Assembly (NCBI GenBank): GCA_046292385.1
Contig: JBKBRF010000034.1
Span: forward strand, 14,179-78,178
Direction of reading: 5' to 3'
DNA length: 64,000 nucleotides
From: Armatimonadota bacterium
Lineage (GTDB): Bacteria > Armatimonadota > SYMT01
The stretch's first letter is position 1. Every line of letters starts with the position of its first letter. The position numbers were made by a program, and so were the translations under genes. Below the pieces are notes generated by a model, which had not been told where the DNA came from, made no database searches, and saw only the letters and a program-made list of their open reading frames with translations. Positions 14,422 to 63,631 of the stretch are shown in pieces.

Positions 14422-14438
14422 ACCCGACCCATGGCGAC

Positions 14439-14471
14439 CAGAGAGAGCTCCGGAGCCCGGGGCTCTCTCTG
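14439..14471 (+). terminator. Stem-loop downstream of the repeat-protein gene
   Basis: cagagagagctccgg-agc-ccggggctctctctg; no U tract. Confidence 0.5.
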
Positions 14472-15100: not shown

Positions 15101-15204
15101 GACGCCTTCCTCGGGGGAGAACGGTTTCGGGAGCGAAGAGGCCGAGGGCGAACGGGGAGTTGATAGAAAAGTATCAGGCCGACGCCCTCGTCGGAGAGAG
15201 AGAC

Positions 15205-15423
15205 ATGACCCGACTACTCGAGCAGGCGATCCAAGAGGTGCGGGGGCTCCCCGCCAGTGAGCAGGACGAGATTGCCGCCGTCATCCTGAAGGAGTTGGAA
15301 GACGAGCGACTCTGGCAGGACGCGTTCGAGAGATCCCAAGACCAGCTTTCCCTATTGGCTCAAGAAGCGCTAGCCGAGCATCGCGCTGGGGTGACGCGGG
15401 AGCTTGAGCCGGACGAGCTATGA
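15205..15423 (+). CDS. Putative antitoxin
   Basis: MTRLLEQAI..LP.SEQDEIA..ILKELEDERLW..F..SQD.L..LA.EAL.EHRAG; overlaps the toxin gene by ATGA. Confidence 0.7.
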   Translation: MTRLLEQAIQEVRGLPASEQDEIAAVILKELEDERLWQDAFERSQDQLSLLAQEALAEHRAGVTRELEPDEL

Positions 15424-15689
15424 CCTCCCGCACCACCGAGCGGTTCCGGCGAGCGTTTGGCCGCCTCCCGACGGATGTGCAAGAGCAGGCACGCGCTGCA
15501 TACCGGCTTTTCCGACAGGATCCATTCCACCCTGGCCTGCGCTTCAAGAGGGTCCACGACAGCGAACTTATCTACTCGGCGCGGGTCGGATTACACTATC
15601 GGGCGCTTTGCGTCCTCGACACTGATACGGCAACCTGGTTCTGGATCGGCCCTCACGCCGACTATGATCACCTGATCCGCCACCTCTGA
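15420..15689 (+). CDS. ParE/RelE-like toxin
   Basis: F.RLP.DVQ..AR.AYRLF..DPFHPGLRFK, SARVG..YRAL, WFWIGPHADYD. Confidence 0.8.
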   Translation: MTSRTTERFRRAFGRLPTDVQEQARAAYRLFRQDPFHPGLRFKRVHDSELIYSARVGLHYRALCVLDTDTATWFWIGPHADYDHLIRHL

Positions 15690-15743
15690 CCTCGATCGGG
15701 TAAACCTGGGGTGTCGTCCGTGAAGTGCGGGATTACAAGCCAG

Positions 15744-16448
15744 ATGCTTACGAAGCAGATCACCCTGGAGGAAATGCGGGATCTTCCTCTGCCCAGCGCG
15801 GCTCAATTGGCACGATTTGTCGAGCACCTGAAGAACGTACACAGCTGGTATAAGCACCTCCCGCTGCTTGACGGAGATGCCTTCTACGTATTCCTGGCTC
15901 CCGACGCCGGCGAGTGCTATCCCACTCAGCACCCGCCATTGCCCTTCGGGAATGACGCTGAAGGTTACCGGCGGGCCTTTGGGCATCTCGACTACATGTG
16001 GGAGTCGGATGGCTACTGGTTGCGGGATGGGGGACCCCCAAAACGGCTACCGACGCAGGTGGAGGATGAGTGCCGTTTCGTGCTCTTCCCCTACGTGTCG
16101 TACGGTTTCGAGTGGAGCATGCACGAAAAAGCGCTCTCCGTTCTCCACCAGCGGCCGGGCAGCGAGCTGAGACAACGTCTCCTCGACTGGGAAGCCGCCG
16201 ATCACAGAGCTGACGAGGTGTGGCAGCGCCTCCCTGAGACCGAGCGCGATGAGCTCTGCGGACACGACGAACCTTCCGAGAGTCCGGTCACGGCGGGCCA
16301 GTTGGAGTACTTGACTCTGAGGGGGTGGGCGGGCGCGATTCACGAATCGCTGCATATGCAAGAGGAGTCGAAGATCTGGCGCGCCTTGACGAAGCTCCAG
16401 GAGATCCTCCGGCCCCGCAGTACAGGATCGGATATGGAGCTTGAATGA
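15744..16448 (+). CDS. Hypothetical protein
   Basis: Long ORF with globular composition (HSWYKHLP motif); no family recognised. Confidence 0.55.
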   Translation: MLTKQITLEEMRDLPLPSAAQLARFVEHLKNVHSWYKHLPLLDGDAFYVFLAPDAGECYPTQHPPLPFGNDAEGYRRAFGHLDYMWESDGYWLRDGGPPKRLPTQVEDECRFVLFPYVSYGFEWSMHEKALSVLHQRPGSELRQRLLDWEAADHRADEVWQRLPETERDELCGHDEPSESPVTAGQLEYLTLRGWAGAIHESLHMQEESKIWRALTKLQEILRPRSTGSDMELE

Positions 16449-39148: not shown

Positions 39149-39403
39149 ACCCTCCGTGCTGCGGAAGCTCAACCTGCTTCCGAGAAACCGCCAGTGGGCC
39201 TGGTTGTCTATCCTGTCTGAGGGTGTGCCCAGATACCGCTGATGTGTTGGAGTGGGAGCAAGGGAAAATGGGGGAGTCGGAGAGCCGCTCCCGTAAGCAG
39301 CTTCCCAAGCTCGCCCTCTCGCCCACTCTCCCTTGCCAGATCCACCTATAGATCCCGGTCTGACGGAGTATTCGGCGGCCCTCTCTCCGCCCGCGCCATT
39401 CTC

Positions 39404-41083
39404 ATGAGAAGCCTGTCTCCCTGGTCCCTTCCCCACGCCGGCCGACGCGCCTGGCTGGCGCTCGGCATCGCCGCGCTGTCGATCTCGGTGGTCGTCCCCG
39501 CCCGCTCCCAGGACCCGCCTCCGCCCGCCGCGGCCGCGGCGGAGATGACGCGGACTATCGACTCCCTGGTGGAGAAGCGGTGGAAAGAGAGCGGAGTCAC
39601 CCCGACCCCCGGGGTGGACGACGCCGGCTTCGCCCGCCGGGTCTACCTGGATCTCGCGGGGCGGATCCCGACGCCGGTGGAGCTGGCGGCCTTCGTTGCC
39701 GACACCTCCACCGGAAAGCGCGCGGCGCTGGTCGATAAGCTCCTCGCCAGCCCGGAGTACGCCGAGCACCTGCGCGACATCTTCGACGTCGTCTTCATGG
39801 GCCGCGGAGAGGGCGCCCAGCCCCGGCGGCGACGGGGCGGCGGAGAGGTGCAGAACGCGCGGGCGCAGTGGCTGGACTACCTGGAGCAGTCGTTCGCGCA
39901 GAACCGGCCGTGGAGTCAGGTGGTGAGCGACCTGCTGCTGGCGCGTCCCGCGGGCGATGCGGAGCGCGGCGCGGTCTGGTTCCTCTACGCGCGCCAGGAG
40001 AAGTTCCAGGACATTGCGGAGGCGATCTCGCCCGCCGTCTTCGGCCTTCAGATCCAGTGTGCCCAGTGCCACGACCACCCGATTGCGCCGGAGATCAAGC
40101 AGGCGCACTACTGGGGACTGGTGGCGTTCTTCAACCGCAGCAAGAACCAGAACACCCCGCAGGGGCCCCGCGTCGCCGAGTCGGCGATCGGCGGCTTCTC
40201 CCAGTTCGCCACGCTCTTTGGGGAAAGCAAGCCGGCGCAGTTGACCTTCCTCGGGACCGACCCGCTGCCGGAGGACCGGCCCGCGCCGGACGTGAAGGAG
40301 ATGGACTCTCCCGAGCTGTACCGACCGAAGCCGGAGACCGCTCCGAAGGAAGAGCCGCCGGTGCCGAAGTTCTCCCGCCGGGAGCTGTTCGTGGAGCGGG
40401 TGGTGCAGGGCAACCCGCTCGTCGCCCGCGCCGCCGTCAACCGGTTCTGGGCGCTGTTGATGGGCCGCGGGCTGGTACACCCGGTCGACAAGATGGACTC
40501 GGTCCACAAGCCATCCCACCCGGAGCTGCTCGACTGGCTCGCCGCCGACTTCGAGAAGAGCGGCTACGACGTGAAGCGGCTGGTCCGCTCCATCGTGCTC
40601 TCCAGACCATACCAGCTACAGGCAAAGGCGACGGGGACGGTGCAGCCGGACCTCTTCGCCTACGGCGTGGAGAAGCCGCTGACGGCGGAGATGCTCTACC
40701 GTTCGCTGATGGTCGCCACCAGCGGCAACACCGAGGCCGATAACGGCGAGCTGCTCCAGTCGCTGGTGAAGGTGTTTCCGGACGTCTTTGCGGAGGAGAA
40801 CATCGCCACCCTGCGGCAGGCGATGTTCCTGACGAACAACCCGACGATCCAGAAGCTGGTCCAGCCTCACAGCGGCAGCACCGCGGAAAAGCTGGCGGCG
40901 ATCGCCGATCCGGCCCAGCGGGTGAAGGAGGCGTTCCGCATCGCGTACGCACGAGAGCCGGACGCGGAGGAGCTGAAGCAGGCGACGGCCTACCTCCAGG
41001 CTCGCGCGGACCGCCCGAAGGAAGCGACCTCCCAGCTCTGGTGGGCGCTCCTCACCGGCGCCGAGTTCCGGTTCAACCACTAG
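39404..41083 (+). CDS. DUF1549/DUF1553 domain exported protein
   Basis: Signal peptide, RRVYLDLAGRIPT, CAQCHDHP, ARAAVNRFW..LMGRGLV.PVD, PSHPELLDWLA. Confidence 0.9.
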   Translation: MRSLSPWSLPHAGRRAWLALGIAALSISVVVPARSQDPPPPAAAAAEMTRTIDSLVEKRWKESGVTPTPGVDDAGFARRVYLDLAGRIPTPVELAAFVADTSTGKRAALVDKLLASPEYAEHLRDIFDVVFMGRGEGAQPRRRRGGGEVQNARAQWLDYLEQSFAQNRPWSQVVSDLLLARPAGDAERGAVWFLYARQEKFQDIAEAISPAVFGLQIQCAQCHDHPIAPEIKQAHYWGLVAFFNRSKNQNTPQGPRVAESAIGGFSQFATLFGESKPAQLTFLGTDPLPEDRPAPDVKEMDSPELYRPKPETAPKEEPPVPKFSRRELFVERVVQGNPLVARAAVNRFWALLMGRGLVHPVDKMDSVHKPSHPELLDWLAADFEKSGYDVKRLVRSIVLSRPYQLQAKATGTVQPDLFAYGVEKPLTAEMLYRSLMVATSGNTEADNGELLQSLVKVFPDVFAEENIATLRQAMFLTNNPTIQKLVQPHSGSTAEKLAAIADPAQRVKEAFRIAYAREPDAEELKQATAYLQARADRPKEATSQLWWALLTGAEFRFNH

Positions 41084-41096
41084 GGATACGAGAACG

Positions 41097-42422
41097 ATGA
41101 AGAACCCGAAGGCTCCGCGCAACTGCGGAAGTCCCGACCATAAGATCCACCGTCGCCGCTTCCTGGAGGGGACCCTCGCGGGTGCGCTCAGCGTCTCCAG
41201 CTTCAGCGGCCTGTTCTCGATCCCCGCCTTCGCGGAGCAGGCGAAGAAGGAGCAGAAGCACGTCATCCTGCTCTGGCTCTGCGGCGCGCCGAGCCAGTTC
41301 GAGACCTGGGACCCGAAGCCGGGCGTGCCGACGAGTGGACCGTTCGGGAGCATCCCGACCAACCTGCCGGGCGTGCATGTGAGCGAGCTGATGCCGCGCT
41401 GCGCCAGGATGATGGACAAGCTGGCGGTGATCCGCTCGATGAAGACGTCCCAGAGCGAGCACCTCCAGGCGATCGACCTGCTGAACCGGGGAGACGGTCC
41501 CCGCCCACCGTTCATCCGCCCCACGCTCGGCAGCGTGCTGGGCCAGCAGCTCGGCCAGCTCGACAGCCCGATCCCGAGCTTCGTCCTCCTCGATCCCTGC
41601 CCGGAAGGCAACGAGTTCCGCGCCTTCAAGGCGGGCAACTGGGCCGGCTGGCTCGGCGCGGAGTACGGCCCGGTGCGCGTGGGCGGCGAGTTCAGGATCG
41701 AGGACATCGCGCGTCCGGAGGAGCTTTCGGAGGTCGACCACGAGGAGCGGGAGGCGCTGCGCCGCTTCCTGAGCCGGAAGTACGAGAACGACCGCAAGAG
41801 CGCGGCCTCCGGCTCCTACAACGCCGCCTACGAGCGCGTGAAGGGGCTGATGAGCTGCGCGCACCTATTCGACCTGGAGAAGCTGCCGCAGAAGGACCGC
41901 GACCGGTACGGGCCGGGCGCCTTCGCCCAGCACGCGCTGCTGGCCCGCCACCTGGTGGAGAACGGCGCGCCGTTCGTGATGGTGGCGAACGGGATGCCGT
42001 GGGACTGCCACGTCTACAACCACGAGATGCACCAGATGCTGGTGCCGGAGCTGGACCAGGTGATCTTCAACCTGATCAACGACCTGGAGCAGCGCGGCAT
42101 GCTCGACAAGACGCTGGTGATCATGATGGGCGAGTTCGGCCGCACGCCGAACCTGAACGACGCCCGCGGCCGCGACCACTACCCGAACGCCTGGAGCATG
42201 GCGCTGGCCGGCTGCGGCATCCGCGGGGGCGTGGTCTACGGCGCCACGGACGAGCTGGGGATCGACGTCAAGGAGAACCCGGTCGACCAGCGCCAGCTCT
42301 TCTCGACCTTCTTCACCGCGCTCGGCATCGAGCCGCACGAGCAGTACGACCTGCCCGGACTGCCCACCTTCTACCGCGTAGAGGGTGATGCAAAGCCGAT
42401 CCGAGAGGTGCTGCGGGTCTAG
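41097..42422 (+). CDS. DUF1501 domain protein (Tat signal)
   Basis: RRRFL, PSQFETWDPKP, GEFGRTP, GRDH, GGVVYGATD. Confidence 0.9.
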   Translation: MKNPKAPRNCGSPDHKIHRRRFLEGTLAGALSVSSFSGLFSIPAFAEQAKKEQKHVILLWLCGAPSQFETWDPKPGVPTSGPFGSIPTNLPGVHVSELMPRCARMMDKLAVIRSMKTSQSEHLQAIDLLNRGDGPRPPFIRPTLGSVLGQQLGQLDSPIPSFVLLDPCPEGNEFRAFKAGNWAGWLGAEYGPVRVGGEFRIEDIARPEELSEVDHEEREALRRFLSRKYENDRKSAASGSYNAAYERVKGLMSCAHLFDLEKLPQKDRDRYGPGAFAQHALLARHLVENGAPFVMVANGMPWDCHVYNHEMHQMLVPELDQVIFNLINDLEQRGMLDKTLVIMMGEFGRTPNLNDARGRDHYPNAWSMALAGCGIRGGVVYGATDELGIDVKENPVDQRQLFSTFFTALGIEPHEQYDLPGLPTFYRVEGDAKPIREVLRV

Positions 42423-51580: not shown

Positions 51581-53152
51581 ATGGCGTCGCGCTGGGCAAT
51601 CGACCTCGGGACTACGAACACCGTTGTGGCAATGGAAGAGTTCGGGAGCGTCCGCGCGGTGACGCTTCCCGGGGTGGGGCGAACCCTTCCGGTGGAGCAA
51701 TCGCCGCTCATCCCTTCGGCCGTGCACATTACCGATAGCTACGAGCGGTGGCTCTACTTCTTCCGCCGTCGCCGCCGGAACGTGAGCATCGGACAGCAGG
51801 CGCTGAGCCGCAACTTCGACGGCCGCTCGCCCGCCTTCGCGCAGAGCTTCAAGCCGGTCCTCGCCACCCAGCCGCACAAGCCGCTGCTGCGGGTGGGGGA
51901 CCGGGAGGAGCTGACCGCGCGGGACGTGACCTTCCATTTCCTGCGGGAGCTCCTGGCCCGGCTCCGGGAGCAGCACGGGGCGCATCCGCAGGACCTGACG
52001 ATCCCGGCGCCGGTCGGCTACTTCGACCACTACCGCGCGGAGCTGAGCTCCATGGTCAAGCGGCTCGGCGTGAAGCGCTTCCGCTCGCTCGACGAGCCGG
52101 TGGCGGCGGCGCTCGGCTACGGCGTGAACGTGGCGCGGGAAGAGTCGCTGCTGGTGGTCGACTTCGGCGGCGGCACGCTCAACCTGGCGGTGGTGCGGCT
52201 GGGACCGCGCACGGCGGAGACCGGCAAGGCCGATGTGGTGGCCAAGCACATGGTGAGCGTGGGCGGCAACGACGTGGACCACTGGCTGGTGGAGCACCTG
52301 GTCGCCTCGGAGCTGCGGGAGATCCCGGAGTGGTACAAGGACATCCACTGGGAAGCGATGTTCGTGAAGGAGCGGGTGAGCCAGCAGGGAAGCGCGGAGT
52401 TCCGCTGGGGCGGGATCCAGCGCCACGTGACGCGCGACGACCTGGTGGGAGTGCTCGACCGCCACGGCCTCTACGAGCAGCTCCGCATCGCGCTGCGCGA
52501 CATTCAGCGGCAGCTCGCCGAGGACCCGATGATCCCGGTGAACGGGGTGGACGAGGTGCTGATGGTCGGCGGCTCCACGCTGCTGCCGGAGGTGCCGGCG
52601 GTGGTGGACGAGGCGTTCCCCCAGGCAATCGTGCGGCACGACCCGGACTTCGTATTCCAGTCGGTCGCCCTCGGCGCGGCACGGTACGCGGGCGGCACCG
52701 CGCTGGAGGACTTCGTCTACCACGACTACGCCATCGCCGTGCAGAACGAGAAAACGCGGAGCCAGGAGTACGAGCTGCTGGTGCCCCGCCGCACCCGCTA
52801 TCCCACCACCTCCGACTTCGCGGTCCGCTACTACGCGGACTACCCCGGCATGAACGAGGTCCGGTTCAGCGTCTGCGAGGTCGGCCGCCTGGGGCAGTCG
52901 CCGGTCTCCTGGGAGCAGCGTCCCAACGCCAACCGGTACTGGTGCCCGCAGGACGAGCGGGAGCGCGCGATGGTGGTGCTGCTGAACCCGGCGGACGAGG
53001 CGGTGCCGCTCCGGCCGCCGGGACAGGGCGCCTCGGCCCGGCTGCGGGTGACCTACAACATCAACGCCGACCGCTGGCTCTGCGTGACCGTGGAAGACCT
53101 GGTGCGCAAGCAGGTGCTCAAGGAGAACGAGCCGGTAGTCCGCCTGAGGTGA
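51581..53152 (+). CDS. Atypical Hsp70-family protein (NBD plus SBD-beta-like domain, no helical lid)
   Basis: AIDLGTTNT, DEPVAAALGYG, VVDFGGGT, GGNDVD, VGGSTLLP; LVPRRTRYP..RVTYNINADRWL.V.V.D. Confidence 0.88.
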   Translation: MASRWAIDLGTTNTVVAMEEFGSVRAVTLPGVGRTLPVEQSPLIPSAVHITDSYERWLYFFRRRRRNVSIGQQALSRNFDGRSPAFAQSFKPVLATQPHKPLLRVGDREELTARDVTFHFLRELLARLREQHGAHPQDLTIPAPVGYFDHYRAELSSMVKRLGVKRFRSLDEPVAAALGYGVNVAREESLLVVDFGGGTLNLAVVRLGPRTAETGKADVVAKHMVSVGGNDVDHWLVEHLVASELREIPEWYKDIHWEAMFVKERVSQQGSAEFRWGGIQRHVTRDDLVGVLDRHGLYEQLRIALRDIQRQLAEDPMIPVNGVDEVLMVGGSTLLPEVPAVVDEAFPQAIVRHDPDFVFQSVALGAARYAGGTALEDFVYHDYAIAVQNEKTRSQEYELLVPRRTRYPTTSDFAVRYYADYPGMNEVRFSVCEVGRLGQSPVSWEQRPNANRYWCPQDERERAMVVLLNPADEAVPLRPPGQGASARLRVTYNINADRWLCVTVEDLVRKQVLKENEPVVRLR

Positions 53153-53156
53153 CGCG

Positions 53157-54167
53157 ATGGAGAGTGATCGTGCGGTACTCGGGAGATTCCTCTCGGACCT
53201 CAGCCACCCCAATCAGAGGCGTCGAGAGGAAGCGATAGCCGGAATCGCCCGCCTCGGCGAGGAAGCTATTCCCGGAGTGTGCCACGTCGCACTGAAGGGA
53301 ACCACGGTCGCCCAGCAAGCGGCGATGAAGGCGCTCACCGCGCTCGCGTCTCCGCAGGCGGTAGAAAGGCTGGCGCGGGTACCCGGCTTCGAGTGGACGG
53401 ACGAGCTCAACACCCGAATCCGGATGTTGGCCGCCTGCGGACCTCCCGCGGCTCCGGAGCTGGTCCGCGCCCTCTCCGTGGATGACAGCGCCACGTGGAT
53501 TGCCTTGATGGCGCTCCGGCGAATGGGAGTGGATGCGGTGCCGGCGCTGTGCGACGGCCTGGTTTCCCGCTTCTCGCGTACTGTCACCTCCAGCGCCAGA
53601 CTGCTGGGCGAGATCGGGAATGCGCTCGCGGTGGAGCCGCTCTCCCGTGCGATGCTCCGGACGGAGCCGGAGGTACGCCGGGAAGCGGTGCTCGCCCTCG
53701 GGAAGCTGGGCTGCGATGGGGCGCGTGAGACACTCCGGCAGGCGGTCGCCGCGCCGGATCTCGGTCCCCTCGCCGCGCTGGCGCTGGTGGAGCTGGGGCA
53801 TGGGAGCGACGAGCTGGTCCCGCCCCTGGTCCGCGTGCTGCAGGATCACGACTCGCGAGTCCGCGTCCGCGCGGCCCGAGCCCTGGAACGGCTGGCGGAA
53901 GCGGAGGCGCCGCTCTCGCTGCGAAGCGCGCTCGGCCCGCTGCGGCGGCTTTCCTGGTCGTGGCTAATCGACGGCGACGAGCGCGCGCTCTGCCGGCACG
54001 TCGCGGAACGGATCCGCGCGGCTACCGTTGGAATATCGGATCTGCCGATCCCGCGCCGGGCCGGCGACACCGATTCGCTGCCCGTTCCCGCGGAGCCGGC
54101 GGAAACTCGCGAAGAGTCGCTGCCTCGTCCGAGCCGCGAGTATGAGCGTGGATCCCAGGGCGCATAA
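53157..54167 (+). CDS. HEAT-repeat protein 1 of 8
   Basis: PEVRREAVLALGKLG, DSRVRVRAARAL; tail DLPIP-SLPVP-SLPRP. Confidence 0.85.
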   Translation: MESDRAVLGRFLSDLSHPNQRRREEAIAGIARLGEEAIPGVCHVALKGTTVAQQAAMKALTALASPQAVERLARVPGFEWTDELNTRIRMLAACGPPAAPELVRALSVDDSATWIALMALRRMGVDAVPALCDGLVSRFSRTVTSSARLLGEIGNALAVEPLSRAMLRTEPEVRREAVLALGKLGCDGARETLRQAVAAPDLGPLAALALVELGHGSDELVPPLVRVLQDHDSRVRVRAARALERLAEAEAPLSLRSALGPLRRLSWSWLIDGDERALCRHVAERIRAATVGISDLPIPRRAGDTDSLPVPAEPAETREESLPRPSREYERGSQGA

Positions 54168-54193
54168 CCGGAGCGGAAGGGTCCCACAGGAAC

Positions 54194-55651
54194 GTGATGC
54201 AGAGCGATCCCGTCCAGAGCCAGGTCGAGCACCAGATCGCGCGGCTGGACGCGCCGCACCCCGGCGCGCGGCGGGAGGCGTTCGACGCGCTCGCCCGCGC
54301 TGGCTTCGCCGCGGTTCCTCCGCTCTGCACGGTGCTGAAAGAGGGGAGCGTGCGGGCACGCATCGCCGCGGCGCACCTGCTCGCGGTGATCCGGGAACCG
54401 GAGAGCGTGCCGGCGGTGATGGAGGCGGTCTGGGACCCCCACCTCGCCGTACGCCGCGCCGCCATCGCTGCGCTGGGGACGATGCAGGCCGCGGAAGCGG
54501 TCACGGTGCTGATCGAGGTTGCCCGCTTGCCCGCGGCGGCCTGCCGCGAGGACGTGCTCCGAGCCCTGGCAAAGATCCACGACCCGCAAACCGTACCCGC
54601 GCTTTGCCGCTTTCTGACGGAGGGCGGTTCGAGAGCGGTGATCGTCGAGGCGCTGGCGGCCAGCGGTGATCCCGCCGCCGTTCCCGCGCTCGCCAAGCTG
54701 CTGGGCTCCGCTCCGTCCTCGGCGGCAGACATTATCTCTGCCCTGGCTCGCATCCCGCACCCGGATGCCGCAGCCGCGCTCCTACAAGGCCTCGACCGTG
54801 CCGGCGGGACACTCCGGCTGCGGATCGAGGCCTTGCAGGGCCTCGGTGCGGCGGCAGTACCGGCGCTAATCGACGCCCTGGGCGGTCCGGCGGATGCGGC
54901 GAATCTCTCGGAGAACCTTCTGAGCTCCATGGGGGATTCAGTCACTCCGGCACTCAGCGAAGCGCTGTCTGCCCCGGCCGACTACCGGAGCCATGCAGCC
55001 TGGAACCGCCGGTTCCGGGTGATACGCCTGCTCGCATCCTGCGGGTCTCCGGCGGTTCGCCCCCTGGTAGGAACCCTCCGGGACCCCGCACCGCAGGTCC
55101 GCAAGGCGGCGGCGCTGGCGCTCGGGCTGATCGGGCAACCGAAGGCAATTCCTTCCCTGTGCCCGCTGCTGCAGAGCCAGGCCCCGGGGATCCGCGAGGC
55201 CGCAGCAGTGGCGCTCGTGGAGTGTGGAGCCGCGGAGGAGGAGTTGATCGAGCACCTGGTGCGCGGACTGGAATTGACGGTCCCCAATGATCTCCTTCCA
55301 CGAGCCGCGGCAGCACTCACCCGGATCGCGAGGGACGCGCCCTGCTCGCGGCTCAGGCTCGCCCTGCCGGCGCTCCGACGCATCGCCCGCAACTTCTTCC
55401 GCCCGACCGCTGAGCGGTCGGCCGCTCGGGAGGCGGTTTCCGCCATCGAGGCGGCGACGGCCGGTCTCTCCGACCTTCCGTTACCTTCCAGCGGAGCGGG
55501 TGGGGAGGCAGCCCTGCCGCTCCCGGCGCGGGCAGCCTCGGCCACCGCTCCGGAGTCGCTGCCGCGCCCGCAGCCGGCTCCCGAGACTGCGGGGGCTGCC
55601 GGCGACTCTCCCGGCGACGACTTCAACCTGACACGATCTACGTATGGCTAG
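54194..55651 (+). CDS. HEAT-repeat protein 2 of 8
   Basis: AVRRAAIAALG, PQVRKAAALALG.IG; tail DLPLP-ALPLP-SLPRP. Confidence 0.85.
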   Translation: MMQSDPVQSQVEHQIARLDAPHPGARREAFDALARAGFAAVPPLCTVLKEGSVRARIAAAHLLAVIREPESVPAVMEAVWDPHLAVRRAAIAALGTMQAAEAVTVLIEVARLPAAACREDVLRALAKIHDPQTVPALCRFLTEGGSRAVIVEALAASGDPAAVPALAKLLGSAPSSAADIISALARIPHPDAAAALLQGLDRAGGTLRLRIEALQGLGAAAVPALIDALGGPADAANLSENLLSSMGDSVTPALSEALSAPADYRSHAAWNRRFRVIRLLASCGSPAVRPLVGTLRDPAPQVRKAAALALGLIGQPKAIPSLCPLLQSQAPGIREAAAVALVECGAAEEELIEHLVRGLELTVPNDLLPRAAAALTRIARDAPCSRLRLALPALRRIARNFFRPTAERSAAREAVSAIEAATAGLSDLPLPSSGAGGEAALPLPARAASATAPESLPRPQPAPETAGAAGDSPGDDFNLTRSTYG

Positions 55652-55711
55652 TCCTTCAAACGTTCATATGCGCCAGCTCTCCGCTTCCTCGCCGGGCGCG
55701 TCCACACCGAA

Positions 55712-57127
55712 ATGCTAAGCTCGACGCCCGGTGAACTGGAACGCGCTGCCGCCCGGCTGGGGTTCTGGTATCCGCCGGAGCGCCGACGGGCGGCGGCCAC
55801 CCTGGAGCGAGCAGGCGCCAGTGCCGTGCCGGTGCTGGCGCGGGTGCTCCGGCGCGGCTCCGGCCCCGCCCGGTCCGCGGCGGTGCGGCTGCTCTCCGCC
55901 CACTACCTGGCCGAGGTGGAAGGGCTGCTGATCGAGGCGCTAAGAGACCGCGCGCCGACCGTGCGCCGGACGGCGATGCGCGCACTCGGCCTGCGGAGGT
56001 CCACGGCAGCGCTCCCCGCGCTGCTGGGGATGGTGAAGTCCGGCCCGGCGAGCTGCCGGGAAGCCGCCATCCGTGCCCTGGGGCGGATTGGAGACCCTCG
56101 GGCGGCACCGGTGCTGCTCGAGATCCTGGCGCGGGACTCGCTGCGGACTACCGTGGTGGAGTCGCTCGGAATGATCGGAGAGCCGATCGCCGTCCCCGCG
56201 CTGGTGGCGATCCTGGGCGAGCAGGGCCCCTCCGAGCTGCAGCACGTCATCCTGGCACTCGGGCGCATCCGGCATCCCGACTCAGCGGCGGCGCTGGTCG
56301 ACTACGCCACCCGGCAGCGTTGGACCGCCCCTGCGATCCGCCAGCCGCTGCTCCGCCTCGGCCAATGCGCCGTGCCGGCCCTGATCGACGCGCTCGACCG
56401 GGACCGCACGACGGTCGTCTTCGCGTCCGAGCTGCTCCAGGAGTTGGACGAGGAGGCGGTGCCGGGGCTCCTCGAGGCGCTCGATCGCCCTGCGGCGACG
56501 GAGGGCGGGAGCTGGCGGCGCCGCGCCCACGCCGCCCAGGTGCTCGGCGCGATCCGCAGCCCCGCGTCGACCCCGGCGCTCATCCGGACTCTCGCTGATC
56601 CGACAGTGCAGGTCCGCTTCGAGGCGGCCCTCGCGCTGGGGGAGTTGGGCGATCCCGCGGCCTGTCCGGCGCTGCGGACGCTGCTGCCGGATGAGGCGCC
56701 GTCGGTGCAGGCAGCGGCAGCGGTCGCCCTGATCCTCTGTGAAGGCTACGAGGAGGCGCTGATCCCCCTGGTCGTCGGCGGCCTCGACCGCAGCCACCCG
56801 GAGTTCCTGCGGCGGCGCGCCCTCCGGGCGCTGCTGCAATTCACCCGAGCGGCGCCGACGCCCGCGCTCCGAGCGGCGATCCCGCGCCTGCGCGCCGCCC
56901 TGCATCCGATGGGCGCTGCGGCCGGCGAGCGAGACACTGTCCGCAGGGTGCTGAGCGAGATCGAGGCCGCTACCGGCAACCTGGCTGCCCTGCCGCTGCC
57001 GGCGGCGGGCCTCGAGGCGCAGGCGGACCAGCTCCCGCGCCCGGCCGCCGCGCCGGACGGCGCGCCGCACTCGCTCCCCAGGCCGGCCCCGGCGGCCGAT
57101 CACGAGCCGGAGTTCCTGGTCCCATGA
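55712..57127 (+). CDS. HEAT-repeat protein 3 of 8
   Basis: CREAAIRALGRIGDPRA, VRFEAALALGELGDP; tail ALPLP-QLPRP-SLPRP. Confidence 0.85.
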   Translation: MLSSTPGELERAAARLGFWYPPERRRAAATLERAGASAVPVLARVLRRGSGPARSAAVRLLSAHYLAEVEGLLIEALRDRAPTVRRTAMRALGLRRSTAALPALLGMVKSGPASCREAAIRALGRIGDPRAAPVLLEILARDSLRTTVVESLGMIGEPIAVPALVAILGEQGPSELQHVILALGRIRHPDSAAALVDYATRQRWTAPAIRQPLLRLGQCAVPALIDALDRDRTTVVFASELLQELDEEAVPGLLEALDRPAATEGGSWRRRAHAAQVLGAIRSPASTPALIRTLADPTVQVRFEAALALGELGDPAACPALRTLLPDEAPSVQAAAAVALILCEGYEEALIPLVVGGLDRSHPEFLRRRALRALLQFTRAAPTPALRAAIPRLRAALHPMGAAAGERDTVRRVLSEIEAATGNLAALPLPAAGLEAQADQLPRPAAAPDGAPHSLPRPAPAADHEPEFLVP

Positions 57128-58353
57128 GCCATCTCGCTATCCATCCACACCTGGCGGCGCTGATCGAAGCGAACGTGGCGCAGCTCGAGAGCGAGGACGC
57201 GGGGGAGCGCGAGGAGGCGGTACGGCGCCTGGTGAGCTGCGGCGACGCCGCGGTGCGCGACCTGTGCCGGGTACTCGAGAGCGGCTCCGATGCCGTGCGG
57301 ATTGCGGCCTGCCGGGCGCTGCGGCAGCTCCGCTCCCGCCAGGCGACCCCGCCGCTCTGCCGCGCCGCGACCAGTCCCGCACCGGAGGTCCGGCGGGCGG
57401 CCCTGGAGGCGCTCGCCGTGGCGGGGGAGGAGCCGGATCTCTCCGGAGAGGAGGGCGAGCGCGCCTTCGAAGCGGCGAAGCTGCTGGCGCGGATGGAGGA
57501 TCGGCCGGCGCTGCCGATCCTGCTGGGGCTGCTCCACCCGGGCGGCGGCGAGGCATTCGCGTCAGAGGCCCCCACGGTGGATCCGGAGGCGCTGCGGCAG
57601 CTGGGGGCCCGGCAGCCGGGCTTCCTCGCGCGGCTCTGCGTCGACGAGACCTTCGCCTGCGAGGCGCTGGACGAGGCGGTGGTCGCCCTGGGCGACTCAG
57701 GCGAGCGCCCGCTGCGGATGGTGCTGAAGCGGCCCGACCGCTACGATGCGGCCGCGCGGCGGCGAGCGGTGCGGGTGCTCGCGCGGATGCCGGACAACGC
57801 GATCCCGCTGGCGCGGGCGCTCTCCGACCCGGAGGCTAGCGTTCGCGAGGAGGCGGCGCTGGCCCTCGGCTCCTTTACAGAAGAGTCGGCGAGGCAGGCA
57901 CTCCTCGCCGTGCTGCAGAGCGAGCGAGAGGAGGAGAGCGTCCGAGCGTGCGCGGCCATCGCGCTCCTGGAGCATGGGGAAGTGCTCCCCGCGGCTCTCC
58001 AGCGGGTAGCACGCGTCCTCGGGCGCGACCCGCGGCTGAACGAGCGCGCCGTGCGAGCGCTGGTCCGCGTGGCGCAGTCCGGCGCGCTCGTCGACCTGAA
58101 CCCGGCCATCCGGAGACTGAGCCAGCTCTGCCGCGCCTGGACGCTCCCCGCGGAGGAAAAGGCGCTCTACCAGGAGGCACTGCGAGAGATCCAGGCGGCA
58201 GGCGACCGCCTGACCGACCTGCCGCTGCCGTCCCAGCGGCCGCCCGTCGACGCCAGCGCGCTCCCCCGGCCAGCGATGGAGAGCCGGACCTCCGCCGAGC
58301 AGCTGCCGAGACCGTCCGCCGGACCGGCCGGCACCGGGGAGTGGGAGGGCTAA
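57124..58353 (+). CDS. HEAT-repeat protein 4 of 8
   Basis: PEVRRAALEAL, DPEASVREEAALALG; tail DLPLP-ALPRP-QLPRP. Confidence 0.85.
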   Translation: MSHLAIHPHLAALIEANVAQLESEDAGEREEAVRRLVSCGDAAVRDLCRVLESGSDAVRIAACRALRQLRSRQATPPLCRAATSPAPEVRRAALEALAVAGEEPDLSGEEGERAFEAAKLLARMEDRPALPILLGLLHPGGGEAFASEAPTVDPEALRQLGARQPGFLARLCVDETFACEALDEAVVALGDSGERPLRMVLKRPDRYDAAARRRAVRVLARMPDNAIPLARALSDPEASVREEAALALGSFTEESARQALLAVLQSEREEESVRACAAIALLEHGEVLPAALQRVARVLGRDPRLNERAVRALVRVAQSGALVDLNPAIRRLSQLCRAWTLPAEEKALYQEALREIQAAGDRLTDLPLPSQRPPVDASALPRPAMESRTSAEQLPRPSAGPAGTGEWEG

Positions 58354-58357
58354 CTCG

Positions 58358-59746
58358 ATGGATCCCTGGAGCCACCAAGAGCCCTCGATCGCCCGGCTGC
58401 TTCGGGAGTTGTCGGCGGACGATCCAGCCCGGCGCAAGGCGGCGGTAGAACGGCTGGTGAGGTGCGGGGAGGCCGCGGTGGAGGACCTCTGCGCGGTCCT
58501 GGAAAGCGGCACGGAGCCCGCGAAGCTCGCCGCCTGCGACGCGCTGGAGCGGCTGCGGTCTAGAAAGTCCGCCCCCTGGCTCGGCGAGGCGGTGAGATCC
58601 GGGTCGCCGGCCGTCAGCCGGGCCGCGTTCCGCGCCCTGGCGTCGCTCCAGCCACGCGACGGCGCGGAGGAGCTTCGGGCGCTGGCCGAGAGCCACTGTG
58701 AGCTCGCGATCGAGGCTGCCGAGCTCCTGGCCTGCCGCGAGGACCCGGAGGCGCTCTCAATCCTGCGCGTGCGGCTGATGCGGATCAATGAGCCGCAGCC
58801 GCGCGTCGTCGCCGCACTCGGAGGGCTCGGCGACAGGAGGGCGCTCCCGCTGATTCAGCGCATCCTGGATGAGGGCTCGTCGGAGATGCAGATCGCCGCC
58901 GCAAACGCGCTGGCCCAGTTCGGCGATGTCCGCACCGCGCCCACTCTCTGGCTGCCGCCCGTGGAGCCGCTCACCTCCGAAGTGCGCGAAGCTCGTCTCG
59001 AGGCGCTGATATTGCTCGGAATGCGGAACCCCGAGGCGTTTATCCGGCTCTGGTCGCTCGCCGCGGGAGATCTGGAGCTCGCGGACGAGGCGCTGGCGCG
59101 GATCGGAGCTCCCGCCCTGAATCGGCTCGAAACTCTGCTGCGTACCCCGAATCCGGCGCTGCAGTGCAGAACTGCCCGCGTTTTCGGGATGAGCAGCCCC
59201 AATCCGAGCGCTCTCCTACAGGCCCTGAACGATCCGGACGATGACGTGAAGGTGGAGGTGGCGCTGGCGCTGGCGAGATACCGCGAAGAACGCGTCACGC
59301 GAGCTCTCTTTCGCGTGCTCGAGGGGGACGAGCCGGGCAGGGTCAAAGCGAGTGCAGCCATCGTGCTGGCGGAGCAGGGCCAGTTGGACGCGGAAGTATT
59401 CACGGCGGCGGCGGACGGCCTCACGCAGGAGCGGCGCATTCGGGAGCGGGCGGCGCTCGCCATCGCCCGGATCGCGGAATCGGGAGCGCGGGTCGATCTG
59501 CGGCCGGCGGTCCGGAAGCTCAGGAGCCTGACCCGGCCGTGGACACTCCTCCCCGCCGAGGAAAAGGCAGTCTACCGGGGCGCGCTGCGGCGGATCGAGG
59601 CGGCAGGCGACCGCCTGACCGACCTGCCGCTACCGTCCCAGCGGCCGCCCGTCGACGCCAGCGCGCTCCCCCGGCCGGCCGGATCGGCGCCGCTCTCGCC
59701 GGAACTGCTGCCGCGGCCGGCGGGCGACCCGGAGGGAGACCGGTAG
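58358..59746 (+). CDS. HEAT-repeat protein 5 of 8
   Basis: ALGGLGDRRALP, DPDDDVKVEVALAL; tail DLPLP-ALPRP-LLPRP. Confidence 0.85.
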   Translation: MDPWSHQEPSIARLLRELSADDPARRKAAVERLVRCGEAAVEDLCAVLESGTEPAKLAACDALERLRSRKSAPWLGEAVRSGSPAVSRAAFRALASLQPRDGAEELRALAESHCELAIEAAELLACREDPEALSILRVRLMRINEPQPRVVAALGGLGDRRALPLIQRILDEGSSEMQIAAANALAQFGDVRTAPTLWLPPVEPLTSEVREARLEALILLGMRNPEAFIRLWSLAAGDLELADEALARIGAPALNRLETLLRTPNPALQCRTARVFGMSSPNPSALLQALNDPDDDVKVEVALALARYREERVTRALFRVLEGDEPGRVKASAAIVLAEQGQLDAEVFTAAADGLTQERRIRERAALAIARIAESGARVDLRPAVRKLRSLTRPWTLLPAEEKAVYRGALRRIEAAGDRLTDLPLPSQRPPVDASALPRPAGSAPLSPELLPRPAGDPEGDR

Positions 59747-59749
59747 GAC

Positions 59750-60811
59750 ATGGACCCGGTTGGCGACGGAAGAAAGAGATCGCTCGGAGGCGATCCGGAG
59801 ACAGGTCAGCCGCCCGACGCGCGGGCACGCTCCGCGATAGGGGAGCCGGCAGGGCGCGGCCGTGCCGCCATCCCCGCGCTCTGTGAGCAGCTCGCGAAGG
59901 GCCAACCGACGGAGCAGGCCGCGGCGGCACGCGCGCTCGGGCGGCTCCGGGATCTGCGCGCCGTCGCCCCGCTGCTGCACGCGCCGTCCGGCAGCGCCGG
60001 TGCGCCGCTTCGGGAGGCCTGCATCGAGGCGCTCGCGCGGATCGGGGCTCCAGCGGTCCCGCTGCTGGCCCGGGCGCTCGCCTTCGACGCTGAAGAGGTC
60101 GCCTCCTCCGCCCTCGTACGGATCGGAAGCCCGGCCGCCGGCGCTCTGCTCGACGCGCTCTACTCCTCCGATCGCGCGGTCCGGACGAGTGCGGTGCGGA
60201 TCCTCGCCGCCATCGGCACTGAGGAGGCGGGCGCGGTGCTCGCGCGGGTGCTCGGCGACCCGGAGCGGAAGCGGCGAATCGACGTCGCCACCCGGATTGA
60301 CCTCGCGCTCGCGCTCGGCACCGTCATCCCGGGGTCCGGCTCCCAGGCGCTCACGCAGGTGATGCGGGATGCGGACGAACACCCGCTCGTGCGGGCGTGT
60401 GCCGCCATCGCTCTCTGCGAACGGGGCGATTCGGAGGCGGAACGGATCCAGTTAGCAGTGGGAGGGCTCCACGGCAATCACCGCATCCGGAAACGCGCCG
60501 CAGCCGTGCTGGCGTGCTGCGCGCGGGAGCGCCCGTGGCGGGAGCTCGACCTCGCGGTCCCCCTGGTGCGCCGGCTAGCGCGGTCGCGCGAGCTGCCGCA
60601 AGCGGAGACCGCCGCCTACCGGGAGACGCTCGTCCTCGTGGAGACGGCACTGGAGAGAATGGCGACCCTGCCGGTACCGGCGGGGGTTTCGACGGAGCTG
60701 CGCAGCCTGCCGCAGCCCGCCGAAGCCCCTTTCGCCGCGGCAGGCCTACCCCGGCCCGCTATCACGTCCGCAGCTCATCCGGCGGAGGCCGATCCCCATG
60801 GCGACCTCTGA
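59750..60811 (+). CDS. HEAT-repeat protein 6 of 8 (shorter, eroded N-terminus)
   Basis: AARALGRLRDLRAV.PL, AVRTSAVRILAAIG; tail TLPVP-SLPQP-GLPRP. Confidence 0.8.
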   Translation: MDPVGDGRKRSLGGDPETGQPPDARARSAIGEPAGRGRAAIPALCEQLAKGQPTEQAAAARALGRLRDLRAVAPLLHAPSGSAGAPLREACIEALARIGAPAVPLLARALAFDAEEVASSALVRIGSPAAGALLDALYSSDRAVRTSAVRILAAIGTEEAGAVLARVLGDPERKRRIDVATRIDLALALGTVIPGSGSQALTQVMRDADEHPLVRACAAIALCERGDSEAERIQLAVGGLHGNHRIRKRAAAVLACCARERPWRELDLAVPLVRRLARSRELPQAETAAYRETLVLVETALERMATLPVPAGVSTELRSLPQPAEAPFAAAGLPRPAITSAAHPAEADPHGDL

Positions 60812-62210
60812 CGACGCAGCCGATCCGGGCGCGCCCATCGACGAGGCGATCGATCAGCTCAACGCGTTCGATCCGCAGCTCCGGAGCGCCGCAATCGAGC
60901 GGCTGGTCCGGTCCGGCCACGCGGCGGTCCCGGCGCTCTGCCGCGCGCTGGTAACGGCGCCGGATGTCGCGCGCGTCGCCATCTGCCAGGTGCTCGGCAC
61001 GCTGCAGGCGCCCGAGGCGGCGACCGCGCTCTGTGAGGCGGTAACCGAAGGCTCCTCGGAAGTACGACGGGCGGCACTGGCAGCCCTCGCGGCGCTCCCT
61101 CCGGAACGGGTGGCTCACCCGCTGCGGGAGCTGGCCGGGAGTGGGGGAGAGGCCGGGCTCGCGGCCGCGGAGCTGCTGGCGGAGCTGCACGACTTCGGCG
61201 CGCTGCCCATCCTGCAGCAGATGCTGCTGTTTTCCGGCTGGCAGGTACACCGGGTGCGGGTCATCCGCGCCCTCGGACGGCTGGGCGATCCGCGCGCGTT
61301 CTCCACCCTCTGTGAGCTCCTCGAGGGGCCGTCCGCGGACGAAGCGCTGGCGGCGATCCGCGCGCTCCAGGATCTGGGAGATCCGCGCGCCGTCGAGCCG
61401 CTCTGGCTGCTGGGCGGACCGAATGAACGCGATAGTCTCCGGCAAGCCCGGATCGAGGCGATGGCCAGCTTCGGCAGCAGCGCCGTACCGGGGCTGGTCG
61501 GCCTGCTGCAAAACGACGACGGGAAGGCGGAAGCGGCGCTCGTCCGGATCGGCGAGGCGGCGATCGCGCCGCTCATCGACGCGCTGCCGCACCTCGGCGC
61601 CGCCGCCTGCACCCGGGCCATCTGGGTCCTTGGGGGGCTGAAGGCGGCCGAAGCCGGCCCGGCGCTCGCGTTCGCGCTCGGGGACTCGATCGCGGCGGTG
61701 CGGGAAGGCGCGGCACTCGCGCTCGCGGAGATCGAGACTCCCTGCGGCACGGAGCAGCTGCGGCGGATCGTAGAAAACGAGGCGGAGAGCGACCCGGTGC
61801 GCTCCGCCGCCGCCTTCGCGCTGGCCCGCCGCGGGGTCGAGCACCCGGCTCTGGAGGCGGCACTCACCCGCGGGCTGCACCTCCAGGACGCCGAGAGCCG
61901 GCAGCGAGCAGCCGAGGGACTACTGCAGCTGGCGAACACGCGGCCGAACGTCGCGCTGCGCCTCTGCATCAAGCGGCTGCGCAGTCTCTCCCGCGCCTGG
62001 ACGCTGCCGGAGGAGGAGAAGCGGACTTACCGCACGGCACTCCGGGGCATCGAGCAGGCGACCCGGCACCTTGCGAGCCTGCCGCTGCCGGCCGAGCGTG
62101 GTGGGGGAGACCAGTCTAGCCTGCCCCGGCCCGGCGGACGACCCGCGCTGGACCCGGAGCGGCTCCCGCGGCCCGGACCGGCTGCGACAGACGGAGAAGC
62201 GACCGAATGA
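60798..62210 (+). CDS. HEAT-repeat protein 7 of 8
   Basis: EVRRAALAAL, ALGRLGDPRA, AVREGAALAL; tail SLPLP-SLPRP-RLPRP. Confidence 0.85.
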   Translation: MATSDDAADPGAPIDEAIDQLNAFDPQLRSAAIERLVRSGHAAVPALCRALVTAPDVARVAICQVLGTLQAPEAATALCEAVTEGSSEVRRAALAALAALPPERVAHPLRELAGSGGEAGLAAAELLAELHDFGALPILQQMLLFSGWQVHRVRVIRALGRLGDPRAFSTLCELLEGPSADEALAAIRALQDLGDPRAVEPLWLLGGPNERDSLRQARIEAMASFGSSAVPGLVGLLQNDDGKAEAALVRIGEAAIAPLIDALPHLGAAACTRAIWVLGGLKAAEAGPALAFALGDSIAAVREGAALALAEIETPCGTEQLRRIVENEAESDPVRSAAAFALARRGVEHPALEAALTRGLHLQDAESRQRAAEGLLQLANTRPNVALRLCIKRLRSLSRAWTLPEEEKRTYRTALRGIEQATRHLASLPLPAERGGGDQSSLPRPGGRPALDPERLPRPGPAATDGEATE

Positions 62211-63631
62211 AAAAGAGTAGGAAGGAGCCGTCCCTGGAGGAGCGGATCGAGGAGAGCACCGGCCACCTGCGGATCTGGGACGCGCGGATCCGGGACCGGG
62301 CGATTGCGGAGCTGATTCGCTGCGGCGAGGCGGCGGTCCCCGCTCTCTGCGGCGTGCTGGAGACCGAGTTCGAAGTTGCGCGCATCGCGGCGTGCCGGGC
62401 GCTGCAGACGCTCCGAGCACCGCAGTCGGTCCGCTGGCTCTGCCGCACGGCCCTCGACCCCTCGCAAGACGTGGCCCTGGCCGCGGTGGCGGCCCTGCGC
62501 GCGCTCCGCTCACCGGATTCAGTTTATACCCTCTGCGAGCTGGCGCGCCGGGGAGGGGAGACGGGCCTGCTCGCGGTCGAGGCGCTCGGGAGCATCGGCG
62601 ATCCTTCGGCGACGCCGGCCGTCCTGCAGATGATGCGCTCGCTGCTCCTCGGCGGGAGGGAGCGGGTCATCCGGGTGCTGGGGCAGCTTCGCGACCCGCG
62701 CGCGACGCTGCCGTTGTGTGAAATGCTGGAGCAGGGTTCACACGCAGAGCGGGTGGCGGCGGCGGAGGCGCTGGGGGAGATCGGAGACGCGCGCGCCGTC
62801 GCCCCGCTCTGCCAGTTCCTGGCCTACCCCGTTCCGACGGAAATCCGACACGCGCGCCTGCGGGCCGTGATCAAGATCGGCGCCCTCGGCGCGGAGCCGC
62901 TGGCCCGCCTCCTCGCGTACGACGACGGCACCGCCGACCTCGCGGAGCAAGCGCTGAAGGAGCTGGGGCCGGCCGCGGCGGGCGCACTGGCGGAGATGCT
63001 CGGCGCCCCCAGCTCCGAGGGGCGCCGGCGCGCCGCGGCCTTGCTCGGCGCGGCGGCAGTGCCCGACTACGCTCCGGACCTGGTCCGGGCTCTTTCCGAT
63101 CCGAATGCAGCAGTCCGGCAGGAGGCGGCACTCGCCCTCGGCCCGCTGGCCCTCCCACCCGTCAGGGCGGCGCTGCGCTCGGCGCACGCGCAGGAGAAGG
63201 AAGCGGAGCAGGTACGCGCATGCGCGGGCGTTTCCTTAGCTGAGCACGGCGACGGGAGCGCGGAGGTAATCGCCTCACTCGTGGAGGCGCTGCACCTGGA
63301 GCGGCGGATCCGCGAGCGCGCCGCCCGGGGGCTGGGCCGCCTCGCGGAGACCGAGCCGTCGCTGGCGCTGCGGGGAGCGGTCCGACGCCTGCGCAGCCTC
63401 TCCCGCGCGTGGACCCTGCCGCGCGAAGAGAAGGAGATCTACCGCCGCGCCCTCGCGCAGGTGGAGGCGGCCACCGCGAACCGCCGCGACCTGCCGATCC
63501 CCTCCGAGAGGGGACGCGGGCGCCCGGACGACCTGCCCCGGCCCGCCCAGCCCCCGCAAAACGGCGACGATCTGCCCGTCCCGGCGGAGAGCCGAAAAGC
63601 ACCTGTTGACTCCGGCGGAGGCGTTCAGTAA
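62207..63631 (+). CDS. HEAT-repeat protein 8 of 8
   Basis: RVAAAEALGEIGDARAV, DPNAAVRQEAALALG; tail DLPIP-DLPRP-DLPVP. Confidence 0.85.
   Translation: MKKSRKEPSLEERIEESTGHLRIWDARIRDRAIAELIRCGEAAVPALCGVLETEFEVARIAACRALQTLRAPQSVRWLCRTALDPSQDVALAAVAALRALRSPDSVYTLCELARRGGETGLLAVEALGSIGDPSATPAVLQMMRSLLLGGRERVIRVLGQLRDPRATLPLCEMLEQGSHAERVAAAEALGEIGDARAVAPLCQFLAYPVPTEIRHARLRAVIKIGALGAEPLARLLAYDDGTADLAEQALKELGPAAAGALAEMLGAPSSEGRRRAAALLGAAAVPDYAPDLVRALSDPNAAVRQEAALALGPLALPPVRAALRSAHAQEKEAEQVRACAGVSLAEHGDGSAEVIASLVEALHLERRIRERAARGLGRLAETEPSLALRGAVRRLRSLSRAWTLPREEKEIYRRALAQVEAATANRRDLPIPSERGRGRPDDLPRPAQPPQNGDDLPVPAESRKAPVDSGGGVQ

Follow-up and report, generated by a model that had tools for sequence, protein, structure and literature searches.

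Why should eight adjacent genes for HEAT-repeat proteins encode the same short proline motifs at their 3' ends, and why should a gene for an Hsp70-like ATPase stand at their head? This question is raised by a 64-kb stretch of DNA from an Armatimonadota bacterium (hereafter, the window), which reaches to the end of a 78-kb contig in a genome of 7.0 Mb and 91 contigs. The answer that we regard as somewhat probable on balance, judging from sequence comparisons, structural models, and analogy with known chaperones, is that the C-terminal tails with LPxP motifs serve as a portable multivalent short-linear-motif tag that recruits a dedicated Hsp70 devoid of the lid. The pairing of such an Hsp70 with tailed HEAT proteins is present in two bacterial phyla, Armatimonadota and Gemmatimonadota.

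The Hsp70-like gene heads eight consecutive plus-strand open reading frames (ORFs) of 336 to 485 amino acids (aa) each, which span positions 53157 to 63631 of the window. Neighboring genes are separated by 3 to 60 nucleotides (nt) or overlap by 4 to 14 nt, an arrangement of all nine genes that fits a single operon. All eight products pass the Pfam HEAT_2 model (68 to 138 bits versus the cut-off of 27.7), and in most of them PBS-lyase HEAT-like repeats are above the cut-off as well. The features are as follows.

51581..53152, plus strand: lid-less Hsp70-like ATPase, 523 aa, with a nucleotide-binding domain (NBD), a linker, and a β-sandwich substrate-binding domain (SBD), as judged by Pfam HSP70, AlphaFold2 (AF2), and Foldseek
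53157..54167, plus strand: HEAT protein 1, 336 aa, starting 4 nt past the Hsp70 stop
54042..54164, plus strand: tail 1, with LPIP, LPVP, and LPRP
54194..55651, plus strand: HEAT protein 2, 485 aa
55475..55648, plus strand: tail 2, with LPLP, LPLP, and LPRP
55712..57127, plus strand: HEAT protein 3, 471 aa
56990..57124, plus strand: tail 3, with LPLP, LPRP, and LPRP
57124..58353, plus strand: HEAT protein 4, 409 aa, its start overlapping the stop of HEAT protein 3
58219..58350, plus strand: tail 4, with LPLP, LPRP, and LPRP, the example peptide of the initial annotation of this locus
58358..59746, plus strand: HEAT protein 5, 462 aa
59624..59743, plus strand: tail 5, with LPLP, LPRP, and LPRP
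59750..60811, plus strand: HEAT protein 6, 353 aa
60668..60808, plus strand: tail 6, with LPVP, LPQP, and LPRP
60798..62210, plus strand: HEAT protein 7, 470 aa, modeled as an α-solenoid to residue 422, then a low-confidence tail
62079..62207, plus strand: tail 7, with LPLP, LPRP, and LPRP, the first of which is the motif docked in the complex model
62207..63631, plus strand: HEAT protein 8, 474 aa, with the contig end 369 nt beyond
63491..63628, plus strand: tail 8, with LPIP, LPRP, and LPVP

The initial annotation had described these tails as carrying exactly three LPxP motifs, with x being I, L, V, R, or Q, spaced 12 to 14 residues apart, and had taken them for a selected short linear motif. 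The triple tails of the array are real and far beyond chance. LPxP occurs exactly 3 times over the full length of each of the eight proteins, always within the final 40 to 58 residues, and 20,000 shuffles of the last 70 residues of each protein produce a mean of 0.04 to 0.31 motifs per tail and a probability of 0 to 0.0021 for three or more (that is, at most 0.21% of shuffles). The first motif has L, I, or V as x; the second and third mostly have R, and otherwise L, V, or Q. The start-to-start distance has to be widened to 12 to 15 residues. In the alignment of all eight proteins, whose HEAT domains are 29 to 34% identical, the L, P, and P of the motifs provide 9 of the 27 invariant columns, and the linkers are unconserved. 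The AF2 model of HEAT protein 7 is a 24-helix solenoid with a predicted local distance difference test score (pLDDT) of 92.4 overall, confident to residue 422. With fixed L, P, and P positions, free linkers, low model confidence in the apparently disordered tail, and the same tail on a second, zinc-ribbon fold (see below), the description as a short linear motif holds up.

The tails are not confined to the array. A strict six-frame search of the whole genome for LPxP triples finds 22 ORFs of at least 100 aa, 16 of them with the triple at the C terminus; these are the 8 array genes, 7 HEAT paralogues on contigs C5, C11, C16, and C28, and a 153-aa zinc-ribbon-like protein on contig C9. A relaxed pattern adds two genes on C16, with LPRV or LPIT as the third motif, a tailed gene on C24, and a second eight-gene HEAT array on the minus strand of C3 (about 113369 to 121353), whose tails consist of LPLP, LPRV, and then LPRV or LPRI at the extreme C terminus. 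The genome total comes to about 26 tailed HEAT paralogues at seven loci; the remaining HEAT_2 matches in the genome show no tail under the relaxed pattern. An alignment of 17 paralogues of the genome leaves a single Leu and L-P-x-P, L-P-x-P, L-P as its invariant columns.

A tail-module profile of 111 positions, built from these 17 paralogues and searched against 1.84 billion proteins, matches 728 representative proteins at a threshold of E<=0.001, of which 231 remain at E<=1e-10. In the top 150 of these 728, the last 110 residues contain no LPxP in 3 proteins, one in 17, two in 60, three in 64, and four in 6. When these 150 are aligned to the hidden Markov model (HMM), motif 1 has L in 93%, P in 100%, L, V, or I as x in 93%, P in 95%, and A, S, or G next in 96%; motif 2 has L in 95%, P in 98%, and the second P in 89%; and motif 3, present in about three quarters, has L in 73%, P in 77%, and the second P in 61%, all these percentages being biased towards the motifs because the family HMM contains them. 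The motifs recur with a period of 14 residues, and Pro is enriched at position +7 of each unit. Thus, the pattern and profile search proposed in the initial annotation recovers the tail in this genome and its relatives with the spacing kept, but the count of three, claimed there to be invariant, is a trait of the window array and not of the family. The family rule that can be read from the alignments is a conserved helix (...IEAAT..LKD) followed by two or three 14-residue units that start with LP-x-P/V-(A/S/G).

The zinc-ribbon protein from contig C9 has two homologues in the protein collection, and all three carry 2 or 3 terminal LPxP motifs with the same spacing. The tail is thus a module that passes from one fold to another, as would be expected of a tag recognized in trans; this speaks against a function restricted to the HEAT fold.

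Two further features of the tails deserve mention. An extra Trp/Arg-rich basic C-terminal end, at least 25 residues past the last motif, is found in 45 of the 150 representatives and is absent in the eight array proteins; it could be an amphipathic segment that binds membranes or nucleic acids. Another 91 of the 150 end shortly beyond the last motif, as do the eight array proteins. Within the array, HEAT genes 4 and 5 share a 131-nt stretch (58144-58274 and 59549-59679) that is 90% identical and covers the helix and the first two motifs; the two proteins have diverged outside it, which points to either local gene conversion or a partial duplication in the recent past.

The protein that heads the array is, by its sequence and predicted structure, a natural lid-less Hsp70. 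It matches Pfam HSP70 over residues 7 to 371 (83.6 bits versus the cut-off of 20.6), and its phmmer alignment to DnaK extends to residues 410 to 434, into the first strands of the SBD. In the AF2 model (pLDDT 90.8), an actin-like ATPase domain is followed by strands at residues 382 to 521; the helical lid is absent, the region after residue 371 includes only a 4-residue helical turn, and the chain ends in a β-strand. The best Foldseek matches are lid-deleted constructs of DnaK and BiP (NBD plus SBD-β), with about 547 aligned columns. The ATPase motifs D-x-G-T-T-N, D-E-P, D-x-G-G-G-T, and G-G-S-T align to those of DnaK and show little or no variation across 59 homologues. Homologues of this protein are 508 to 560 aa long, and the C-terminal heptad EPVVRLR is found in 66 of the 112 full-length ones; the terminal VVRLR, modeled as the last strand, is almost invariant, with most homologues ending in it. 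Their source labels say just “Hsp70 family protein” or DnaK of Armatimonadota. This is the sole lid-less Hsp70 of the genome, the two other Hsp70s being 27 to 30% identical and each encoded near a J-domain gene.

Assignments to better-known families were considered and rejected. The protein is not HscA (109 bits versus 709 for TIGR01991 and 113 versus 620 for NF003520, with no isc-operon context) and not DnaK (74 bits versus 648 and 73 versus 823 for the NCBIfam models), and it falls far under the cut-off of the 450-residue NCBIfam “molecular chaperone” model. Nor are the HEAT proteins phycobilin lyases or NblB (51 bits versus 300 for NblB and 42.5 versus 220 for CpcF). A PADLOC search left the Hsp70-like protein unmatched and gave its partners nothing beyond generic HEAT hits. 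Two side observations concern the Hsp70 and a distant relative. The β-sandwich of the former contains, at about residues 470 to 480, a conserved Pro/Leu-rich loop (P-L-P-L-R-P) that resembles the tail motif. The latter, P0274 (919 aa), joins a distant lid-less Hsp70-like part of 29% identity to HEAT repeats in one chain, lacks the LPxP tail, and may belong to the CoCoNuT CnuD type.

The genomic association of the tail with this Hsp70 extends beyond the window. We surveyed 301 Armatimonadota genomes, with thresholds of E<=1e-5 for the tail module and E<=1e-30 for Hsp70-like proteins; per-genome tail copy numbers are lower bounds, at most 15 candidates having been scored in each genome, and the C3 array, for one, escaped this capped search as well as the strict pattern. 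The tail module was found in 26 of these genomes and an Hsp70-like protein in 58. All 12 genomes whose Hsp70 is at least 58% identical to that of the window have the tail module, as do 7 of the 9 genomes in the 43 to 46% tier, compared with none of the 37 genomes whose best match is 38 to 43% identical; six inspected loci of this last tier showed no tailed neighbor. In other words, the tail module is present in 19 of 21 genomes with a close Hsp70 homologue versus 7 of 280 without one, counts that, like those of adjacency, come from genomes related by kinship and are no statistical test. Both are present in 19 genomes, and in 12 of these, from five families, the Hsp70 gene adjoins a tail gene on one contig; the assemblies of the other 7 are fragmented, and one of these shows the Hsp70 among clearly different neighbors.

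In Gemmatimonadota, an orthologous lid-less Hsp70 is encoded in 15 of 201 genomes. At one such locus (L018), the 42%-identical Hsp70 is followed by a HEAT protein that ends in three LPR-x units 14 residues apart, and a downstream HEAT gene encoding three such units with this spacing is present at all 12 Gemmatimonadota loci examined, two of which are cut by the locus end. In this phylum, the fourth residue of the motif is S, A, or G in most cases, and the core of the motif is therefore L-P-x followed by a small residue or Pro. A cross-phylum pattern search with the Hsp70 alignment, covering 80 loci, retrieved mostly generic Hsp70s, because one of the patterns is a universal phosphate motif, and revealed a tailed neighbor only in L018.

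The physical contact between the tail and the Hsp70 was approached by a single complex prediction, in which the complete Hsp70, with an alignment of 59 rows, was paired with the 108-residue module from HEAT protein 7, with an alignment of 17 rows. The interaction score ipSAE was 0.73 (0.76, 0.73, and 0.71 in separate runs), compared with 0.00 for the best of three controls. Of 157 solved complexes, 116 came up to the pass mark, as did 2 of 215 mismatched pairs; given that Hsp70-peptide complexes have already been solved, this pass shows likeness to them and may reflect the model's memory of a similar complex rather than contact in this pair. The runs have at least 51% of contacts in common, with a partner pLDDT of at least 64. 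The predicted interface joins residues 385-430, 448-451, 474, and 485-490 of the Hsp70, all in the β-sandwich, to module residues 62-73, which include the first LPLP, and 20-24. The model thus places the first LPxP motif in the peptide-binding domain.

If the tail is indeed a tag for this Hsp70, the following mechanism can be envisaged. The Hsp70 of the operon, retaining its ATPase motifs and β-sandwich peptide domain but no lid, would accommodate an LPxP unit as an extended strand in the β-sandwich, like the IscU LPPVK in HscA. The lid and latch lower peptide off-rates in DnaK (PMC8215388), so a lid-less Hsp70 should hold a single motif only briefly. Evenly spaced tandem motifs might then provide avidity by rebinding or allow several Hsp70s to be loaded per tail. 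The α-solenoid proteins, which may serve as scaffolds or adaptors, would then probably have their conformation or state of assembly controlled at the expense of ATP. A still broader proposal, which we put forward as a tentative possibility, is that of an undescribed chaperone system found in at least two phyla, in which a lid-less Hsp70 is aimed by a tandem LPx(P/V) tag at a solenoid family and at least one unrelated protein. It would drive their ATP-dependent assembly, disassembly, or switching as a bacterial counterpart of clathrin uncoating, with valency replacing the lid and the J-protein.

A number of observations weigh against recruitment of the lid-less Hsp70 by the tail, in addition to the possible memory in the complex model and the bias in the conservation figures. 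In that model, only the first motif is docked, with motifs 2 and 3 unplaced, and when Hsp70-like proteins with and without a linked tail are compared at the modeled interface, they have an R-Y-Y-A strand in common and no clean specificity signature sets them apart. None of the 7 J-domain genes in the genome lies near the Hsp70 locus or the other tail loci. There is no Hsp70 beside the C3 array, and 18 of the approximately 26 tailed paralogues sit away from the sole lid-less Hsp70, which would need to act on them in trans. Two genomes with a 45 to 46% identical Hsp70 homologue lack the tail module, and one of them encodes a HEAT neighbor whose tail repeats another motif. Conversely, seven of the 26 tail-bearing genomes (G021, G012, G064, G129, G190, G215, and G231) have no lid-less Hsp70 at E<=1e-30; a recheck of five of them with the 59-sequence profile found generic Hsp70s only (83 to 125 bits), and 4 of the 7 are at least 94% complete. 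One of these four, G064, has seven tail matches, and the two genes that were read have intact or near-intact triples.

These observations bear most directly on the strongest rival explanation, according to which the tail is read by another receptor, such as the housekeeping DnaK or a different proline-motif reader that all these genomes would share, and the lid-less Hsp70 is linked to the HEAT proteins in some other way, for example, by acting on or together with the solenoid domain. The seven genomes without the lid-less Hsp70 keep generic Hsp70s, DnaK does bind proline-rich peptides (PMC8215388), and most tailed paralogues are encoded far from the candidate partner. A link between Hsp70-like and HEAT proteins without LPxP exists as well: besides the P0274 fusion, the HEAT neighbor of a 45%-identical lid-less Hsp70 in one Armatimonadota genome (G094, L102 1990-2730, minus strand) lacks LPxP and instead repeats a hydrophobic E-L-x-L-x-E-P-like unit 2 or 3 times. 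However, another receptor would leave unexplained why the tail tracks the close homologues of the lid-less Hsp70, why the genes adjoin in Armatimonadota and at every Gemmatimonadota locus examined, and why the complex model, unlike its controls, docks the motif in the SBD of this very Hsp70. In addition, the near-complete genome G129, one of the seven, has as its sole tail gene a 134-aa open frame (L016, 7779-8180) with most of the HEAT part missing, whereas its same-genus relatives that keep the Hsp70 have full-length tail genes; this single case looks like joint decay of the tail gene and the Hsp70. On this evidence, we consider another receptor improbable, if still worth attention. The suggestion in the initial annotation that the tail docks the co-encoded Hsp70 therefore draws support from adjacency and co-occurrence, the complex model, and the portability of the tail to the zinc-ribbon family, and loses some of it to the seven genomes; occurrence of the tail without this Hsp70 subfamily, named there as a sign of a different receptor, is found in just that part of the sample.

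Another possibility is that the LPxP units bind in the groove of a HEAT solenoid, either their own, causing autoinhibition, or that of a paralogue, resulting in head-to-tail assembly, with the Hsp70 not being the reader. In the monomer model of HEAT protein 7, the blocks of the tail have pLDDT values of 75, 57, 69, 76, and 55, and those that hold the motifs (75, 69, and 76) score above the linkers (57 and 55). Foldseek matches only generic solenoids to this model (alphaRep, PP2A-A, and importins), and α-solenoids such as importins and PP2A-A commonly bind extended peptides; the many paralogues in the genome would offer many grooves. This explanation is nevertheless quite unlikely, as the same tail is found on the zinc-ribbon family, which has no HEAT domain, and the motifs are invariant despite the low similarity of the HEAT domains.

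No more credible, in our estimate, is a semirigid proline-rich stalk or spacer, or a degradation signal, which in many relatives would hold the basic Trp/Arg-rich end off the solenoid, perhaps letting it reach a membrane or nucleic acid. The frequency of such ends among the representatives, the N-terminal hydrophobic helix of two tailed paralogues in the genome, and the enrichment of Pro at +7 all speak for it, but a spacer needs no invariant Leu, hydrophobic or Arg residue at x, small residue after the second Pro, or fixed 14-residue period, and the eight array proteins, like most of the family, stop shortly past the last motif, leaving no end to be kept at a distance. A sortase- or exosortase-type sorting signal, already discounted in the initial annotation, can be dismissed: no transmembrane helix or basic anchor follows the motifs in any of the eight array proteins, which have acidic or Gly/Pro-rich ends and N termini without a hydrophobic stretch, and the model of HEAT protein 7 shows no helix beyond residue 422.

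As for the surroundings, the other side of the Hsp70 gene is occupied by an SLT-domain gene and then MoeA. Positions 39242 to 42422 of the window hold PSCyt2/PSD1 (DUF1549/DUF1553) and DUF1501 genes, here in an Armatimonadota genome; the PSCyt2/PSD1 pair is typical of Planctomycetota. On contig C28 (about 13196 to 16104, locus L005), the ORFs next to the two membrane-anchored tailed HEAT genes look, by their N-terminal sequences, like cas3 and cas5 of a CRISPR-Cas system.

Dedicated Hsp70-client pairs that are read via a defined motif are rare, and our literature search, with subscription journals outside its coverage, found no description of the LPxP motif or of the Hsp70/HEAT pairing. Compared with the known dedicated pairs of an Hsp70 and a motif, the novelty would lie in the absence of the lid, the tandem valency, and the large paralogous family of putative clients. 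Should the tag reading prove true, it would add a fourth, lid-less type of bacterial Hsp70 with an identifiable client set, supply a simple sequence tag that predicts Hsp70 clients from genomes alone, and offer a natural test of how far motif valency replaces the lid in substrate holding. It would also give the first functional handle on the large HEAT-repeat expansions in Armatimonadota, and the tag might find use in directing an Hsp70 to proteins of choice.

Several known systems share parts of this arrangement. Fes1, one of the helical-repeat proteins that partner Hsp70, inserts a flexible segment into the SBD as a substrate mimic. HspBP1, a partner of the same kind, is an ARM protein (PMC3837014). 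Both are eukaryotic single-copy co-chaperones that bind the NBD, whereas our complex model predicts no contact with the NBD, and the existence of 26 paralogues makes an exchange-factor role unlikely. Hsp70-like and HEAT-like units are also combined in CnuD and CnuCD of the Type III CoCoNuT systems, which have the McrB/McrC-like CnuB and CnuC alongside and Hsp70-like ATPase motifs described as degenerate (PMC11090510). The Hsp70-HEAT pairing is a shared trait, and the distant fusion P0274 is reminiscent of it, but the system described here is set apart by its context and by those descriptions: there is no McrBC-like gene among the ORFs at 36 to 64 kb of the window, the ATPase motifs are conserved, and an LPxP tail is not among the CoCoNuT features given in the available part of that source (PMC11090510).

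For what the Hsp70 may do to the solenoids, the closest working parallel is clathrin, an α-solenoid protein whose heavy chain carries the Hsp70-binding motif QLMLT in its flexible C-terminal tail. Hsc70 binds there and needs this motif for uncoating, an ATP-dependent disassembly (PMC2830701). Clathrin differs in being eukaryotic, in having one motif, and in relying on the J-protein auxilin for delivery of Hsc70.

The initial annotation had drawn its parallel with the insect peptides pyrrhocoricin and oncocin, both of which contain YLPRP. Proline-rich insect peptides bind the SBD of DnaK in a substrate-like manner (PMC8215388). They are, however, foreign inhibitors of the housekeeping DnaK, whereas LPxP marks the C termini of the cell's own proteins and is linked in the genome to a dedicated lid-less paralogue.

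By analogy, the closer precedent for the LPxP tail is the HscA/IscU pair. In a review (PMC8215388), HscA is stated to read solely the LPPVK motif of IscU, its only known client, and the three prokaryotic Hsp70 types covered all have lids. As at the Armatimonadota locus, a specialized bacterial Hsp70 is encoded together with a dedicated native client that carries a short Leu-Pro motif (PMC8215388), and some of the tails described here end in LPRV, which is near LPPV. HscA, however, has a lid, the J-protein HscB, and a single client with a single motif, whereas the present system combines a lid-less Hsp70 and no nearby J-gene with a motif that occurs two or three times in each of about 26 paralogous putative clients.

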